Below are positions 20,623-29,979 of a stretch of DNA of 64,000 bases, piece after piece. Each line of letters opens with the position of its first letter. Position 1 is the first letter of the stretch. The DNA comes from Bacteroidota bacterium. GTDB taxonomy: Bacteria; Bacteroidota; Bacteroidia; Flavobacteriales_D; Crocinitomicaceae. Location of the stretch: contig JBDLVK010000083.1 in the NCBI GenBank assembly GCA_039804825.1, forward strand, positions 2,323-66,322, given 5' to 3'. Both the position numbers and the translations under genes were made by a program. Under the pieces are notes generated by a model. That model had not been told where the DNA came from and searched no databases. It worked only from the letters and a program-made list of their open reading frames with translations.

Positions 20623-21543
20623 ATGCATCCACAAAACCTCATAGAAAATCCCTTCATTCCCTACTCCTTCCAAGGACAGGAACATGACGATGAGGTGAAG
20701 GGTGAGGGCAATTCTGTTAATTACAAGTACAGAATGCATGACCCGAGAGTTGGTAGATTCTTTTCTGTGGATCCTTTAGCTGAAAAATACCCTTCTTTTT
20801 CTACATATGGGTATGTCGCAAATAGTCCTTTAGTATTTAAAGAATCAGATGGTCGTCAAATTATTATTGTGGATCCTTCAAGTGGTAAAGAATATTTATA
20901 TTGTCCAAATTCAACTGAAATTACCGAAGAAATGGGAGAATTTGTTATAGGGACGATAAACACTTTAGATGAAATAATAAACCGAGGGTGGGATAATGAG
21001 TTTAGTATTATATCAAAAATTGCCAACAACACCGAAACAACTGCCAGAATTGTTTTTGAAAGTGATTGGAAAGCCGCAAGAGGGAATTCAAATGGATATA
21101 TAAAATGGAACCCGTCCAGCGGTTTGGCACAATATAATCAAGATTGTTCAGAAATTAGACACTCTCCTGCTCATTCACTATTTCATGAATTGGGACATTT
21201 GGCATATGTCTTGTTAGATCCATATAAAGAATATGAAAATGAACCTGATAACAGAGTAGTGGGATTTGAAAAATGGGATGAATATTTGATTGAGCAAAAA
21301 ACAAAAGCAGGATCATATGATGAATTAAGTGATAAATGGATTTTAACTGAATTAGATAAAGGTCCAAACGAAGGTATAAGACCTGACCATGGCTTAACAG
21401 ATGAAACTAAAGAAAGATTTTTTGCATCAAATGTTTTTGGAACTGATGGTCCGAAGAAAAGTGATCCATCAAATACTGTATCTGGTCCTATGCCTGAAGA
21501 GTATTATAATACTGATTTTTCAAAAAGTAAACCTCGTTTTTAA
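20623..21543 (+). CDS. RHS-core-end stub fused to an HExxH zinc-metallopeptidase-like toxin domain (module D)
   Basis: ATG at 20623 (MHPQNLIEN) is colinear with the starts of modules E and F. Stub [35 protein letters not shown]. The C-terminal domain has HSLFHELGHLAY. Confidence 0.7.
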   Translation: MHPQNLIENPFIPYSFQGQEHDDEVKGEGNSVNYKYRMHDPRVGRFFSVDPLAEKYPSFSTYGYVANSPLVFKESDGRQIIIVDPSSGKEYLYCPNSTEITEEMGEFVIGTINTLDEIINRGWDNEFSIISKIANNTETTARIVFESDWKAARGNSNGYIKWNPSSGLAQYNQDCSEIRHSPAHSLFHELGHLAYVLLDPYKEYENEPDNRVVGFEKWDEYLIEQKTKAGSYDELSDKWILTELDKGPNEGIRPDHGLTDETKERFFASNVFGTDGPKKSDPSNTVSGPMPEEYYNTDFSKSKPRF

Positions 21544-21550
21544 AGGAGAT

Positions 21551-22033
21551 ATGAAATTATTTACTGTAATTATCGCATTCATATTATTCAAGAGTTCTTA
21601 TGCCCAAGAAAATTATTCAATTGATAGTAATAAATATATGGTTAATTGTTCTTCTTCATTGGTTAAAATTGATTTCATTTATTTAGATTGGCGTTATAAC
21701 CCACCAGGAACTTTAAGCGAATATAATGTGAGAACCAACAATGAAATAGAGAAGATGAGTTTTTCAGTTACAGACTCGATTTCTATTTATAATATTTATA
21801 ATATTTATTGTGATGAAGGAAATAATAAAAGAATTGAAAGTGAACATTTTTCAGTTAGATTGATTATGGATTTACATTTTGTTGATGGTACAATTAAATC
21901 CATACTTATGGACTATTATTTTGAATTTGATGATAAATCAGAGCACAACTTTAGAAATTATAAATTGATGAAATCAATTGTTGAAACTGTGCCTAATACA
22001 CATGCATTTGACAGTCATAAGATTGGGAATTAG
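21551..22033 (+). CDS. Secreted putative immunity protein for module D
   Basis: ATG at 21551 is preceded by aggag. Signal peptide MKLFTVIIAFILFKSSYAQ. Starts 7 nt after the toxin stop. Confidence 0.55.
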   Translation: MKLFTVIIAFILFKSSYAQENYSIDSNKYMVNCSSSLVKIDFIYLDWRYNPPGTLSEYNVRTNNEIEKMSFSVTDSISIYNIYNIYCDEGNNKRIESEHFSVRLIMDLHFVDGTIKSILMDYYFEFDDKSEHNFRNYKLMKSIVETVPNTHAFDSHKIGN

Positions 22034-22041
22034 ATAACATT

Positions 22042-27365: not shown

Positions 27366-28249
27366 TATTTCAATTCTTTTTCAGCTGCTTCTTTTGCTTT
27401 TTTATAAGCTTCATGTCTTTTTATATCTTGATTCCAATGATGTATTACATTATCTTTTCTTTGTTGTGAAAAGGTACTCCAGTTTTTACCATATTTCTTT
27501 GTAGGATCAGCAATATATTCTTTGTGTTTAGCGATTTCATCTGTATGAGACTTTATACTTTTGTTTAATCTAGATTTTACAACATCCACGGTTTCATCTG
27601 CATTTTGTCTCATAAAGTTTGCAACCTCTTTTACTGCTCCTTCAGCAAATTCACTTTTTACTACAGCTTTTCCAACAGCACCAAAAATCTTACCAATTGG
27701 TATTAAACCCGCTGCCTCTATGCCAATATCCGTCCAAGTAACCTCTTCACCTCTGGACAATTTATTTAATATACTTCCAGCAGGGATAATATATTGGCCA
27801 TAATTATTTAAGTTTCCTTTAGCTATTGAAACATTTGCTGGTAGTGGTTTAGGATTGTATACAGGGTAATTAGAATCAAAGATACTTTTTTTCTTTGGAG
27901 ATGGTAATTTTGCTGGATCTTGAAAAATTAGTTTTTGTATACCTAAATTATCAATGGCATCTATTGTAGTTTCTTTTCCATCATTCATATATATTGTTCG
28001 TGGCAAAGATGATTCCAAACCTTCCAATTCGATTAGATAAATAACTCTGTTCTCACTAAATGCATATACTGAATTATTTGGATATTGGCTGCTTAAAGGA
28101 TCCACTGCAAAGAACCTACCAACCCTCGGGTCGCACATTCTATACCTATAATTCACAGAATTCCCCTCGCCCTTTACCTCATCGTCGTGTTCCTGTCCTT
28201 GGAAGGAGTAGGGAATGAAAAATTTTTCTATGAGGTTTTGTGGATGCAT
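27365..28249 (-). CDS. RHS-core-end stub fused to a C-terminal toxin domain of unknown type (module F)
   Basis: [47 protein letters not shown]...IELEGLES. The C-terminal domain contains the Gly-rich hydrophobic stretch [19 protein letters not shown] and a basic helical tail. Confidence 0.7.
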
Positions 28250-28282
28250 ATAATTTAAAAATATAGAAATTTCAAAATTGTC

Positions 28283-28924
28283 TTATTCTCCTAGAAATTT
28301 AAATTTTAGGATTTTTTTTATTTTTTTCCTGTATAAAAAATGAGGTTTTCTACAAAACTCTATTGATGATGAATTAAAATAATAATCCGTTTTTACAATA
28401 GCTATCAAATCACCTTTTTGATAATAATTCAAAATCATTTCTGTATTATTCATATCAGTTAAAATTAAACCGTCAATGTGCTTCTGATCAATTGTTAATT
28501 CACTAAAAAGAATATTACCTTTTTTATTGTACGCAATGGTTGTAGCAATATATCCGGTATTGATTGCAACGGATCTAATTTTTCCCTTATGATAAAAAGT
28601 GGTGTTTTGATCACTTACGTTTAGAAAATAAAAAATTGAATCATTGCCTGGATATACTTTTTGTGTGTTAATTGCTTTCATATGAACGGCAATTTCTCCA
28701 TTTTCAAAATAAACAAAACAATCAGTCATTAATGAATCCGCATTGAAAATACAATGATATAAAGGTTGTAAATTTTGAAACATTTTTTGGTTGTCTTTGT
28801 ATTCATTTTGTGTGGTGAACCAATTTAAACCTTTGAAGTAAATTGAATCTTCATTGTTATTATTTTTTTGGGCACTTGCCGAAATCCCAATTATTGAGAA
28901 AAAAATTACAGAAATTAGTTTCAT
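28283..28924 (-). CDS. Secreted putative immunity protein for module G
   Basis: Signal peptide. 4-nt overlap with the toxin G stop. MORN-variant-like repeats (FENGEIAV, YHKGKIRS, YNKKGNIL). Confidence 0.5.
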   Translation of the reverse strand: MKLISVIFFSIIGISASAQKNNNNEDSIYFKGLNWFTTQNEYKDNQKMFQNLQPLYHCIFNADSLMTDCFVYFENGEIAVHMKAINTQKVYPGNDSIFYFLNVSDQNTTFYHKGKIRSVAINTGYIATTIAYNKKGNILFSELTIDQKHIDGLILTDMNNTEMILNYYQKGDLIAIVKTDYYFNSSSIEFCRKPHFLYRKKIKKILKFKFLGE

Positions 28925-29979
28925 TCGCTATATGATCTTTCTTGATTTGAAGGAGTAAATGTACCGCTTGAATCTGTTCCAGTTTGCGGAACAGGAGCAA
29001 TTATCTTTATACCACTATTGGTTGAAGTGGTGGATCCAACAGATGCAGTGGACGGAGTTATTGTCGTTGCATTGTTCATTGGACCAGATAGAACTGAAGT
29101 AATTGTGAAATTATCTGCGGTACTGGTTGAACCAGTCACTTGAACATTGAATGAAGTAGAACCAGGGGTTAGCGTTGGATTTGTTCCAGCAAATCCTGCA
29201 ATTGTTCCATTATATACTGTACCGCCCAAATTATCAGTTATTTGAACATTCAAAGTAGCTGTTCCGTCTAATTGCAAAGTCCCCATATTTGCACCTGTTG
29301 GCAAAGTTAAAACTCCTGCCTGTGTAGCATTTCCATCCGTAAAATCACCTGATACGACTGAAGTGACTGTATTTGGAGAATCCATACTTCCAGCGGCAAA
29401 ATTCAATATACCAGTACTTCTTCGTAAACCTGTTGAATTTTGCTGACCAGTATGAGCAATGTGGTCCTGTCCACCGTCTGGGCCAACCAAAGTAACAACA
29501 TCAAAAGCCATGCTTTCTTTAATAATCATAGGTGTATTCATCGTCCTAAGATTACCTATATTAAGATTTGTTATTTCTGTTGCTGTCATTCTTCTATATA
29601 TCCAAGCCTCCCTATTGTTAACTAAACCAATAAACAAAATTGTTGAGTTTTGAATTGCCGATGCTCTGTTGTTTTTATTGTAATATGCAGTTGTTTGAGA
29701 GTTGACAGTTACATTAGGTGTAGCGCAAACAGCTGTTATATCCTCTAAACCTTCAAATTCTTTAGAATCGAGAACTTTATTCCCGCTAAAAATATAAGGA
29801 GAGTAGTGAGGTATTTGGCTTGCGAGTGGATCCACCGCAAAAAATCTCCCCACTCTCGGATCGCACATTCTGTACTTGTAATTAACAGAATTTCCATCAC
29901 CCTTCACCTCATCGTCATGTTCCTGTCCTTGGAAGGAGTAGGGGCTATAAGAAAATATGGATGAGGAATTAGAGTACAT
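28921..29979 (-). CDS. RHS-core-end stub fused to a Thr/Ser/Gly/Asn-rich C-terminal domain (module G)
   Basis: [36 protein letters not shown]...EFEGLED, then about 270 aa rich in T, S, G and N with no enzyme motif recognised. Confidence 0.65.
   Translation of the reverse strand: MYSNSSSIFSYSPYSFQGQEHDDEVKGDGNSVNYKYRMCDPRVGRFFAVDPLASQIPHYSPYIFSGNKVLDSKEFEGLEDITAVCATPNVTVNSQTTAYYNKNNRASAIQNSTILFIGLVNNREAWIYRRMTATEITNLNIGNLRTMNTPMIIKESMAFDVVTLVGPDGGQDHIAHTGQQNSTGLRRSTGILNFAAGSMDSPNTVTSVVSGDFTDGNATQAGVLTLPTGANMGTLQLDGTATLNVQITDNLGGTVYNGTIAGFAGTNPTLTPGSTSFNVQVTGSTSTADNFTITSVLSGPMNNATTITPSTASVGSTTSTNSGIKIIAPVPQTGTDSSGTFTPSNQERSYSE

Follow-up and report, generated by a model that had tools for sequence, protein, structure and literature searches.

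A helicase and two tyrosine recombinases amid converging arrays of orphan Rhs toxin cassettes in Bacteroidota: a candidate shufflon- or integron-like system

Orphan C-terminal cassettes of Rhs and CdiA proteins, such as those of Salmonella Typhimurium LT2, form arrays of toxin tips and immunity genes that keep a core-coding piece, and its homology to the main gene allows tips to be swapped. They are direct repeats of the main gene and reportedly recombine with it by general homologous recombination (deletion or duplication), at a locus without a recombinase. In the window studied here, a 64,000-nt stretch of a Crocinitomicaceae contig, two arrays instead converge around a helicase and a tyrosine recombinase pair, orphans have a conserved leader and start codon of their own, and exchange clusters at a 9-nt core. 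Tyrosine-recombinase inversion systems that exchange gene 3' ends, such as shufflons (R64 Rci/pilV) and the phase-variable hsdS loci of type I restriction systems in which a recombinase is embedded, share with this locus alternative C-terminal segments in both orientations, short conserved repeats inside coding sequence, a recombinase gene in or beside the invertible DNA, and a layout in which inversion would join a new tail to a constant body with no DNA lost. Here, however, inversion is deduced by comparison, the cargo consists of toxin/immunity pairs, the single Rci-type or CreX-type enzyme is replaced by an MCM-like helicase and two XerD-like recombinases, of which one has a degenerate active site, and related loci in other Bacteroidota hold only direct repeats.

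The rAID-1 arrays of Bacteroidales, recombinase-associated acquired interbacterial defence clusters in which one 5' recombinase precedes co-directional orphan immunity genes (Ross et al. 2019, bioRxiv 10.1101/471110; PMC12247911), and XerC/D-flanked polyimmunity loci (Zhang et al. 2012; PMC3482391) are likewise Bacteroidota arrays associated with interbacterial toxins; they too combine a XerD-family tyrosine recombinase with repeats between cassettes and a cassette content that changes quickly from strain to strain. Unlike rAID-1, the present locus keeps complete toxin domains with Rhs core tails and places a helicase and two recombinases between converging arrays, and in its relatives the array ends in a main Rhs gene. 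Integrons also set a tyrosine recombinase beside cassettes that are poor in promoters and delimited by a short conserved core, and the unit exchanged here, made up of core, toxin, immunity gene and leader, is similar to an integron cassette, although its core lies inside coding sequence and must keep the reading frame. An IntI-type integrase was rejected (TIGR02249, 96.7 bits against a cut-off of 265), and no attC-like folded site was found at the locus. We found no published description of this toxin-cassette system.

Orphan Rhs cassettes and their repeated 5' ends

The window holds seven copies of a coding stub (Table 1), and TIGR03696 matches all seven ORFs, with D, E, C and F reaching the cut-off of 32.5 bits. 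The stubs, which an earlier note on this DNA had treated as anonymous leaders, are thus the last ~40 residues of the Rhs core, placed at the 5' end of orphan Rhs toxin cassettes (encoded consensus P/R-YSF(Q/N)G.E.D.EVKG.GNS...DPR.GRF...DPL). Each opens a ~300-aa toxin ORF with a unique ~200-aa toxin domain, followed by a small gene that, from its position, is presumably an immunity gene. The "leader" of D is no delivery domain but consists of 13 codons and a non-coding element; this ~80-nt non-coding leader is common to D, E and A.

Table 1. Features of the cassette arrays and the recombinase-helicase trio (window positions)
Feature	Coordinates	Strand	Details
Stub A	16024..16149	-	
Stub B	17820..17945	-	First 63 nt 98% identical to A; upstream unrelated
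Stub C	18891..19016	+	Within 5'-truncated Rhs body
Stub D	20659..20784	+	Pro codon to DPL; start of toxin ORF D; TIGR03696 46.6 bits
Stub E	26762..26887	-	NGMEKD type; nearest stub C; first 63 nt 85% to C, 73% to D
Stub F	28088..28213	-	Similarity to D includes 36-nt N-terminal part
Stub G	29818..29943	-	Equals D for 47 nt from Pro codon; upstream unrelated
Toxin cassette A	15304..16185	-	293 aa; outside convergent array
Toxin cassette B	17019..17981	-	320 aa; outside convergent array
C, Rhs-like gene	18342..19844	+	5'-truncated; YD region, core tail, own C-terminal domain
Putative immunity gene of C	19897..20274	+	125 aa as called; ORF start possible at 19822; by position
Toxin cassette D	20623..21543	+	306 aa from ATG; HExxH motif; weak Peptidase_M91 match
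Putative immunity gene of D (immD)	21551..22033	+	160 aa; by position
Putative immunity gene of E	25503..25985	-	By position
Toxin cassette E	26003..26923	-	306 aa
Putative immunity gene of F	27102..27365	-	By position
Toxin cassette F	27365..28249	-	294 aa
Putative immunity gene of G	28283..28924	-	By position
Toxin cassette G	28921..29979	-	352 aa
Trio	22039..25434	-	Discrete conserved unit, 3.4 kb
rec281	22042..22887	-	Second tyrosine recombinase, 281 aa
rec303	22899..23810	-	XerD-like tyrosine recombinase, 303 aa; full catalytic set
Helicase	23822..25360	-	MCM-like, P-loop, 512 aa; PF27228
Leader of D	20540..20622	+	Conserved, non-coding, 5' of D; stops in all frames
Leader copies	26924-27005; 16186-16270		Upstream of E; upstream of A
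Repeat R2	18184..18318		~135 nt; abuts truncated 5' end of C
R2 copy	14191-14325		99% over 133 nt (repeat search: 98% over 135)
R2 copy	30180-30314		Tandem copies to 30650
Block U2	18032..18182		Upstream of B
U3	30029-30179		U2 paralogue, upstream of G

The inverted repeats that the earlier note had reported are borne out by direct count: D 20623-20774 differs from the reverse complement of F 28098-28249 at 19 of 152 nt (87.5% identity), and D 20659-20705 equals that of G 29897-29943 at all 47 positions. Its estimate of about 90% D/G similarity over ~120 nt also held (95% over 80 nt, 90.5% over 116 nt, 81% over 140 nt), as did the resemblance of the start of E to D (77% over the first 36 coding nt of E). 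Identity does not, as had been supposed, stop abruptly at the toxin domain; from the Pro codon, D/G similarity falls stepwise from 96% (nt 0-62) to 74% (nt 63-125) and to a background of 48% (nt 126-245). A repeat search of the window recovered the inverted pairs 20623-20778/28094-28249 (156 nt, 88%), 20659-20774/29828-29943 (116 nt, 91%) and 20563-20721/26825-26983 (159 nt, 75%), together with similarities of D to A (232 nt, 78%) and to B (119 nt, 80%) and of Rhs fragment C to E (18894-18953/26825-26884; 60 nt, 88%). Chance is ruled out as their source by the seven stub copies and an excess of the 9-mer TWCTCCTTY (15 occurrences in the window against 2.45 expected).

C is the only Rhs body here, and a repeat-associated deletion has truncated it at the 5' end to 500 aa; residues 1-254 of C correspond to 912-1165 in the main protein of L049, which is 1398 aa long (L-numbers label loci in related sequences). 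The system has therefore probably decayed in part at this locus, and a tail swap would probably have no effect on the delivered toxin.

The recombinase-helicase trio and its surroundings

Five cassettes, in two arrays, converge on the trio. The catalytic set of the rec303 family is complete in every member whose sequence covers the motifs, whereas rec281 of the window has Thr for Arg-I and Leu for His-II and retains Arg-II, His-III and Tyr; Arg-I is absent in 35 of 37 members of the rec281 family. The predicted structure of the helicase (pLDDT 86.5) matches MCM subunits (E 1e-12), and longer relatives carry an N-terminal DnaG-type primase. All three trio genes are under purifying selection (synonymous to non-synonymous changed codons of about 75:10, 80:17 and 52:15), and judged from sequence the machinery looks functional. 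The trio is 91-94% identical in nucleotides to those of L005, L007, L048/49 and L053, while the flanks are unrelated.

We found an Rhs gene or stub beside the trio in 29 of 40 Bacteroidota genome loci with the helicase (28 by stub profile, plus L010 by a YD-repeat protein); the other 11 are contigs of at most 8.9 kb. Linked taxa include Saprospiraceae, Chitinophagaceae, Cytophagales, Pedobacter, Fulvivirga, Flavobacterium and Crocinitomicaceae. Among the window's relatives, all 34 stubs in 8 loci point toward the trio, which always lies between two converging arrays; the main Rhs gene sits at an array end, and a trio accompanies only a minority of the cassettes. This layout, which inversions between stubs would preserve, recurs in two subfamilies whose helicases are just 49% identical. 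Most other Bacteroidota families have all their stubs in one direction, so inversion is not a general trait of the trio.

Exchange at the 9-nt core and rearrangement between lineages

An invariant 9-nt core, T[A/T]CTCCTT[C/T] (the YSF codons), marks the 5' edge of each stub, and stub similarity switches there. Leaders group as {A,E,D} and stub cores as {A,B}, {D,F,G} and {C,E}. The window, L048 and L052 have main-gene alleles that agree at 100% over 39 nt upstream and carry different stub types downstream. The switch holds even between stub types that are 54-58% identical overall and share only these 9 nt, and C has only the core in common with F and G. The core variant is TTC in 10 of 10 L048 cores and TAC in 14 of 14 of the other genomes, a lineage difference that persists inside a cassette common to both lineages. 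The rate of identical codons at identical residues, between the window and L037/L008, is 0.68 in stub codons 1-20 and 0.42 in codons 21-40, and it is 0.36-0.45 in the trio genes (window against L037). Clustering of exchange points at the core, with some partners sharing the core alone, suggests that the embedded recombinases exchange DNA at a specific site. One main allele (L052) is a mosaic, with a short QGQEHD patch followed by main-type DEIKG, and short conversion tracts of general recombination could, judging from such patches, produce part of the junction pattern.

The arrangement is not fixed across relatives. Window 18342-19046 and L049 3085-3789 match at 91.6% and run the same way, and the L049 trio matches window 25431-22042 in the opposite orientation; relative to the Rhs gene, the window and L052 share one trio orientation, and L048/L049 have it inverted. 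Both states occur among helicases 98% identical in protein. They differ between lineages ~8% diverged with all cassettes different, so that the inversion endpoints cannot be mapped to stubs. One cassette also occurs on opposite sides: it lies right of the trio on the minus strand in L048 (12483-14024) and left on the plus strand in L053 (1416-2957), and its two copies are 98.1% identical, against only 90.8% for the two trios. This block starts at the junction of CCCT and ACTCCTTC and ends at most 25 nt from the equivalent point in the next cassette; with 3 mismatches 13-25 nt before the core at its right end, its ends are not demonstrably at one phosphodiester bond.

The earlier note's proposal that inverted stubs serve as substrates for inversion and tail swapping thus fits the comparative data (trio orientation states, one cassette on either side of the trio, convergent arrays). 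The likelier route is site-specific exchange rather than homologous recombination along the long repeat, since exchange clusters at the 9-nt core and some partners share no more. Exchange of toxin tails behind a leader likewise draws comparative support, though in this strain, its Rhs body truncated, the delivered toxin would probably stay the same. Alternative junctions were absent among the contigs of this strain: all 4 bearing its recombinase and all 3 bearing immD are colinear, so ongoing inversion is deduced rather than demonstrated.

Competing explanations and a possible mechanism

We favour, with modest confidence, a shufflon- or integron-like toxin-cassette system, probably site-specific, with the trio as its dedicated recombination machinery. 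The stubs could instead be alike because orphans must encode the same core tail, with RecA-dependent recombination or gene conversion between them and the helicase and recombinases an unrelated integrative element in the array. The exchange of classical Rhs and CDI orphans with their main gene by homologous recombination is a precedent, the longest uninterrupted identities (47 nt for D/G, 32 nt for D/F) would suffice for RecA-type exchange, and the L052 patches resemble short conversion tracts. We nevertheless consider this unlikely: it leaves aside the linkage of trio and Rhs genes in several families and the constant place of the trio between converging arrays, and it fits poorly with a switch at the core between stubs sharing 9 nt only, a TAC or TTC core uniform per genome, and synonymous-site conservation confined to the first 20 codons.

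Somewhat more doubtful to us is that trio and cassette form a replicating integrative element targeting Rhs 3' ends, the stubs being duplicated attachment sites and the convergence a product of one or two ancient rearrangements, with no programmed inversion. An MCM-like helicase, primase-fused in relatives, would suit such an element better than an invertase system. In L036, a full Rhs gene, a trio, a stub orphan, a deleted trio remnant and further orphans follow one another on the same strand; in L040, a 7634-bp unit is repeated in tandem, and its copies show no differences over the 6.9 kb compared, from within the stub as far as the end of the locus; two trios occur in each of L027, L032, L046 and L012; and this strain's known contigs are only colinear. 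Yet most cassettes in the window's relatives are without their own trio, convergence is kept in both helicase subfamilies, both orientations occur among nearly identical helicases, the same cassette is found on either side of the trio, and a tyrosine recombinase using these sites would also invert between inverted copies unless prevented. A metagenome mis-join at repeated stubs is very improbable. Short-read contigs of the lineage do often end within stubs (L003 covers window 20676-26887), and P0121 contigs are in many cases no longer than 7 kb, but the same arrangement occurs in a JGI contig of 112.9 kb, another JGI sample, two Logan contigs and the independent lineage L052; two samples (L048 and L049) show the opposite state in identical form, and the record that holds L037 bears the title of an assembled chromosome.

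For the favoured cassette system, we infer that the recombinases catalyse exchange, that inversion still occurs and that the small genes confer immunity. The trio may descend from integrative elements that inserted into the 3' end of Rhs genes, and DNA would be exchanged at a putative site whose crossover region is the core at the stub 5' edges. Between directly repeated sites, recombination would excise or insert a single cassette; between inverted sites, it would flip the trio-bearing segment, so that the Rhs body at the array end gained a different toxin tail, with every immunity gene retained. Genomic islands that insert into the 3' end of tRNA genes and bring a replacement 3' end offer a parallel: in L036 and L040, trio-bearing units carry a copy of the target 3' end and accumulate in tandem, and similarity between main gene and orphan begins exactly between ...LS and VDP. 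Here, however, the replacement end differs from the original: a new toxin domain arrives together with an immunity gene, so that insertion would re-arm the host gene rather than merely restore it.

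Rhs toxin cassettes of the window

A repeat search found seven copies of a stub, the conserved start of about 125 nt that the Rhs toxin cassettes A-G share, between 14 and 30 kb of the window, and recovered the inverted pairs D/F (156 nt, 88% complementarity), D/G (116 nt, 91%), D/E (159 nt, 75%), D/A (232 nt, 78%), D/B (119 nt, 80%) and C/E (60 nt, 88%). Direct counts bore out the near-identities that the earlier note had read by eye: D 20623-20774 differs from the reverse complement of F at 19 of 152 nt (about 20 had been claimed), D 20659-20705 is identical to the reverse complement of G 29897-29943 at 47 of 47 positions, and the D/G similarity, put at about 90% over some 120 nt, is 90.5% over 116 nt. 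This similarity decays stepwise, from 96% through 74% to a background of 48% in successive blocks of ~63, 63 and 120 nt. The plus-strand stubs C and D face the minus-strand stubs E, F and G, and all five have the 9-nt core TACTCCTTC in common; as in a shufflon, short repeats in both orientations bound alternative 3' coding segments. An extra copy of TACTCCTTC, outside the stub and near the 3' end of toxin ORF G, may be a chance match, because 2.45 copies are expected per window.

Each stub begins an ORF of about 300 aa whose first ~75 residues align with the C-terminal part of TIGR03696, the Rhs repeat-associated core domain, and have the consensus P-YSF(Q/N)G.E.D.EVKG.GNS.NY.YRM.DPR.GRF...DPL. 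Four ORFs score above the cut-off of 32.5 bits (D 46.6, E 42.9, C 36.2, F 32.6) and three narrowly below it (G 30.8, A 29.9, B 29.0), the latter aligning with the other stubs as well as with the same domain positions (13/16 to 69/75 of 76). Past the stub the C-terminal parts are mutually unrelated (40-50% nt identity, which is background), and the cassettes have the Rhs arrangement of this core domain directly before a variable C-terminal domain. Among these tails, D has an HExxH motif and a weak M91 peptidase match, and one cassette of the related locus L049 matches Tox-MPTase2 at 6.7e-20. The C-terminal part of toxin B contains AAGAYQIMASTW, which by eye presumably resembles a lysozyme/transglycosylase motif. 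A family search with the small genes downstream of the toxin ORFs returned no match; from position only, we infer that they are immunity genes, in the usual layout of toxin tip plus immunity. Toxin A is followed by a gene with a transglutaminase-core domain (Pfam 9.7e-08), which an immunity protein would not usually have.

Searching with D, we obtained 2331 proteins, the best 120 of which are nearly all 280-400 aa long and share the stub only; the ORF consisting of a core tail plus a variable tip therefore represents a very large family. No full-length Rhs protein with the toxin domain of D was found in this search. Among the matches listed in a search for homologues of the Rhs fragment, none exceeds 444 aa, and the window's own 500-aa protein is absent too, so match length appears to have been capped.

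That fragment, C, is the only Rhs body in the window; unlike the other cassettes it has 185 residues of YD-repeat sequence before its stub, and it is cut at its 5' end by the dispersed repeat copy R2. A full-length Rhs body with YD repeats for the cassettes to join, as an Rhs system has, is absent from the window, so that the intact constant body to which a shufflon delivers its tails is truncated here; it is intact in L049. The full main gene, the Rhs body at the array end in relatives, encodes 1398 aa in L049 and ~2400-2600 aa in L021, L025, L036 and L045. The window is probably a partly decayed copy of the system, because its Rhs body has been cut to 500 aa beside the ~135-nt repeat R. In the L049 main protein (352-4548), the first ~900 residues have few YD motifs and the only Pfam match is a weak BNR-like one, and the protein may not be a classical full Rhs cage.

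Features of the locus in plus-strand order, with positions in the window
Order	Feature	Strand	Position	Description
1	Histidine kinase
2	R1		14075-14335	dispersed repeat
	Gene after toxin A		14419-15297	transglutaminase-core domain
3	A	-
	Leader of A		16186-16270	~80-nt non-coding block
3	B	-	17019-17981
4	U2		18032-18182	U block
4	R2		18184-18328	dispersed repeat
5	C	+	18342-19844	5'-truncated Rhs-like gene
5	Small gene of C	+
	Leader of D		20540-20622	~80-nt non-coding block
5	D	+
5	Small gene of D (immD)	+		putative immunity gene
	Trio	-	22039-25434	rec281, rec303 and ATPase
6	rec281	-	22042-22887	second recombinase
6	rec303	-		XerD-like recombinase
6	ATPase	-		512 aa
7	E, F, G and small genes	-
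	Leader of E		26924-27005	~80-nt non-coding block
	Extra core copy	-	28949-28957	TACTCCTTC in toxin ORF G
8	U3		30029-30179	U block
8	R3 copies		30176-30650	dispersed repeat
9	PD-(D/E)XK gene
	Tandem array		31132-31607	just past the PD-(D/E)XK gene
	tRNA		43866-43938	Rfam match

Several non-coding elements accompany the cassettes. Repeat R contains tandem sub-repeats of 56 nt and ~105-124 nt, and its copies at 14193-14325 and 18186-18318 are 99% identical. A copy adjoins the truncated 5' end of the Rhs fragment both in the window and in L052, a related locus in which a second copy lies at a deletion inside the helicase/recombinase genes; R behaves like a MITE-like element or deletion hotspot, a dispersed repeat associated with deletions. 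It is unlikely to be the attachment site of the whole island, because one L052 copy lies inside the deleted helicase/recombinase region. The ~150-nt U block stands upstream of B and G (copies 77% identical), occurs also in L052 and contains the inverted repeat GGAACACT...AGTGTTCC; B and G are without the leader and without the MxxQNLIEN start seen in other orphans. The leader, TAAATTAAAATCATAAAAAAACCGAGTGGTTCCCACACTTG...TTTTTAATACTTTAGC, stands before the start codon (ATG) of A, D and E; every frame in it contains stops, and part of it occurs in L007. The leader could be a promoter for orphan/immunity expression or part of a recombination site. A candidate cassette-end site, TATTTGTAACCC, which precedes the helicase, is present once in the island and shows no enrichment, and is therefore probably a promoter element of the trio. 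The tandem array has periods of 21 and 63 nt (12 registers listed), overlaps ORFs of both strands and is 85% identical in related contigs. An Rfam scan returned the tRNA as its sole match in the window and none in the island.

The helicase and recombinase trio

Between the inverted stubs lie rec303 and rec281, both Phage_integrase/XerD-like, together with the ATPase. The rec303 product has the full Arg-His-Arg-His-Tyr catalytic set, and every family member at related loci that covers the motifs keeps all of these residues. Aligned to XerD, rec281 has Thr for Arg-I and Leu for His-II, and in its family Arg-I is missing from 35 of 37 members, with Arg-II, His-III and Tyr kept; on this sequence comparison rec281 may be a non-catalytic partner of rec303. 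With both the fully catalytic and the degenerate protein encoded between inverted stubs, the locus has a recombinase within the potentially invertible DNA, as shufflons do. Against the XerC/XerD equivalog TIGR02225 (cut-off 329.6 bits), rec303 scores 137.5 and rec281 86.7, and their likeness to the XerC/XerD chromosome-dimer resolvases is at family level only. Across the loci L007-L053, the rec281 family lacks Arg-I/His-II throughout and is nonetheless under purifying selection; in L048/L049 the second recombinase is shortened to 245 aa, with loss of the Tyr region. In L037 (OZ260085.1, 11556-13363) and the P0005 contig, which represent a Crocinitomicaceae subfamily, the second recombinase gene runs opposite to the first, and the locus changes from its plus to its minus half between these two genes instead of beyond them.

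The ATPase has a Walker A motif and matches Pfam PF27228, and its relatives of 770-900 aa carry an N-terminal DnaG-type primase. A PDB sequence search with the helicase profile gave no match. When its AlphaFold model (pLDDT 86.5, pTM 0.70) was compared with the PDB by Foldseek, the top 50 matches were MCM subunits only (E 1e-12 to 5e-8, TM ~0.4), at 10-15% sequence identity. By fold only, the protein is predicted to be an MCM-type AAA+ helicase with an N-terminal beta-rich domain, an AAA+ core and a C-terminal winged helix. Between the window and four relatives, changed codons in the three trio genes are synonymous over non-synonymous by ~75:10, 80:17 and 52:15, a large excess indicating that all three are under purifying selection.

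Cassette arrangement in relatives and the 9-nt core

The window lies within JGI contig Ga0485287_000067 (112.9 kb), and three further contigs with an identical recombinase are colinear with it. Exact-protein look-up of rec303 and immD found no alternative junction for the window's strain among contigs, all of which are colinear; a metagenome contig scan with the helicase alignment returned one 2.3-kb locus, uninformative on alternative arrangements. Logan contig L003 starts exactly at window 26887, in the Pro codon of stub E, but this is no sign of an alternative junction: a k=31 unitig would break there if any other NGMEKDD-type stub of the sample, inside or outside the window, had a 30-mer in common with E, and the 47-nt D/G repeat accounts for its other end at 20676. 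Lineages whose ATPase is 98% identical at the protein level have only the trio in common with the window (3.35-3.4 kb, 91-94% nt identity), flanked by cassettes unrelated to those of the window, with the sole exception of L007, in which the match additionally takes in D with its small gene, as far as the 5' end of D's leader.

Across 34 stubs in 8 loci, a count spanning the window's close lineages and the Crocinitomicaceae subfamily members L008 and L037 (ATPase only 49% identical), stubs on the ATPase side are co-directional with the trio and those on the other side are opposed to it. The P0005 contig, known from gene calls alone, fits this convergent layout in gene sizes and strands. The sole exceptions are the window's A and B, located past the U2/R2 block and the truncated end of C. 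Inversions between stubs on opposite sides would preserve precisely this convergent layout.

The trio itself occurs in both orientations. L048 and L049, two samples 100% identical over 13.6 kb, have the main gene, three orphans and the trio on the same strand, followed by at least five opposed orphans. Window C 18342-19046 and L049 3085-3789 match at 91.6% and run the same way, and the two trios are oppositely oriented; the window's orientation recurs in L052, an independent lineage that also has the PD-(D/E)XK flank. These are the two states that one stub-by-stub inversion would interconvert, although its endpoints are unmappable because the lineages share no cassette. A cassette encoding a 313-aa toxin and a 122-aa partner lies to the right of the trio (minus strand) in L048 and to the left (plus strand) in L053, and is 98.1% identical between loci whose trios are only 90.8% identical. 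The near-perfect block starts between CCCT and ACTCCTTC of this cassette, and its other end lies no more than 25 nt from the corresponding point of the following cassette. The rearrangement proposed in the earlier note is thus partly supported by comparison between lineages, through opposite trio orientations and a cassette found on both sides; the contigs of the window's own strain are all colinear.

The start of this block is also the point at which similarity groupings switch in the window: leaders group as {A,E,D}, the 36-nt N-terminal parts as {D,F,E,A}, and the first 63 nt of the stub as {A,B} (98%), {D,F,G} (90-96%) and {C,E} (85%). In the main-gene alleles of the window, L048 and L052, the 39 nt upstream of the core are identical and the stub types downstream differ, and the longest stretch that C has in common with F or G is the 9-nt core. 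The core reads TTC in all 10 copies of L048 and TAC in all 14 of other genomes, and the cassette shared by L048 and L053 has the variant of its host genome in each. When the window is compared with L037/L008, identical residues are encoded by identical codons at a rate of 0.68 in stub codons 1-20, of 0.42 in codons 21-40 and of 0.36-0.45 in the trio genes (window against L037); conservation at synonymous positions is limited to the part close to the core. Ser is encoded by TCC in all 15 stubs with Ser at that position, compared with 10% of Ser codons elsewhere among the window's genes. What matters for recombination appears to be the 5' edge of the stub, with the invariant T[A/T]CTCCTT[C/T] and perhaps some 50 nt beyond it. 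By eye, dyad symmetry around the core (TCCTT-CC-AAGGA) is seen in D-type stubs and not kept in other stub types, so no binding site can be proposed from it.

A proposed recombination system for Rhs tails

Scanning a genome collection with the ATPase alignment yielded 40 loci from many Bacteroidota families. In 28 of the 40, the stub profile detected an Rhs gene or stub in the flanking sequence retrieved; in L010 a YD-repeat protein of 2173 aa is encoded directly upstream, and the other 11 are contigs of at most 8.9 kb. L018, L021, L022, L025, L036 and L045 have a full-length Rhs gene (1600-2600 aa) on the same strand, 2-3 kb upstream, and in several of these (L022, L025, L036) stub-bearing orphans also follow the trio. 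L036, from a Pedobacter isolate, has the remnant of a deleted second trio between orphans, and L040 has a 7634-bp tandem repeat whose copies are 100% identical from GTTGACCC (VDP codons, inside the stub) to the end of the locus, 6.9 kb. The same-strand loci look like integrative, replicating elements inserting at the 3' end of the Rhs core, where each insertion would bring a new toxin tail and displace the old one downstream.

That orphan Rhs cassettes exist and recombine with the main gene is known; in the current view, homologous recombination with silent cassettes, an occasional event, diversifies polymorphic toxins. The earlier note had envisaged recombination between the inverted stubs, with a shufflon-like result; our reading agrees with that outcome and would replace homologous recombination along a long repeat by site-specific exchange where the repeat starts. 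Every cassette needs an Rhs core tail of its own, which explains why the long repeats exist. General gene conversion could be an alternative source of the L052 main allele, a short mosaic. For exchange at the cores, the embedded rec303/rec281 pair would be the obvious catalyst: between direct copies a tyrosine recombinase would excise or insert cassettes, and between inverted copies the trio-bearing segment would flip, placing a new tail on the Rhs body with all immunity genes kept. The MCM-like helicase fits a replicating element better than an invertase. We put at about even the chance that these loci represent a dedicated, undescribed Bacteroidota recombination system, an integrative Rhs re-arming element in most lineages and a resident toxin shufflon/integron here. 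It would consist of an MCM-like helicase (often primase-fused), an active XerD-like recombinase and a catalytically degenerate paralogue, and would target a short core inside the Rhs core-coding sequence. In most lineages the element would re-arm a resident Rhs gene by means of the toxin/immunity pair that it carries; in the window's Crocinitomicaceae-like lineage, cassettes would be inverted and relocated, which could change the toxin that is fired and retain every immunity gene.

The nearest known mechanisms are shufflons, invertible hsdS loci, integrons and the rAID-1 recombinase-associated immunity arrays of Bacteroidales. Integrons have an IntI-type integrase, and rec303 (96.7 bits) and rec281 (21.1) fall below the TIGR02249 cut-off of 265; they also have attC at cassette ends, whereas we saw no attC-like element in the island, where the Rfam scan was empty, and the conserved sequence between cassettes is the leader plus a coding stub. 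In rAID-1 arrays a single XerD-like recombinase (at least 44% identity to BF9343_RS08045) stands at the 5' end, before at least two co-directional short low-G+C genes (Ross et al. 2019, bioRxiv 10.1101/471110); here the recombinases are central and the arrays convergent, a distinction of layout alone. XerC/D genes beside polyimmunity loci have also been described (Zhang et al. 2012, PMC3482391). Compared with these systems, only the present loci combine a helicase and two-recombinase module within an Rhs array, converging complete toxin cassettes and an in-frame core site. A full-text literature search of partial coverage found no description of this combination, and an earlier account may exist.

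If this reading is true, toxin switching, or the delivery of tips by mobile elements, would be enzymatically driven and perhaps regulated, much as shufflons bring about antigenic variation and integrons capture genes. The thousands of ~300-aa ORFs of core tail plus toxin in Flavobacteriales metagenomes (2331 matches) would be accounted for, and a compact pair of recombinases would be available whose in-frame target is defined. It would then become possible to test directly how bacteria can switch weapons and stay immune.
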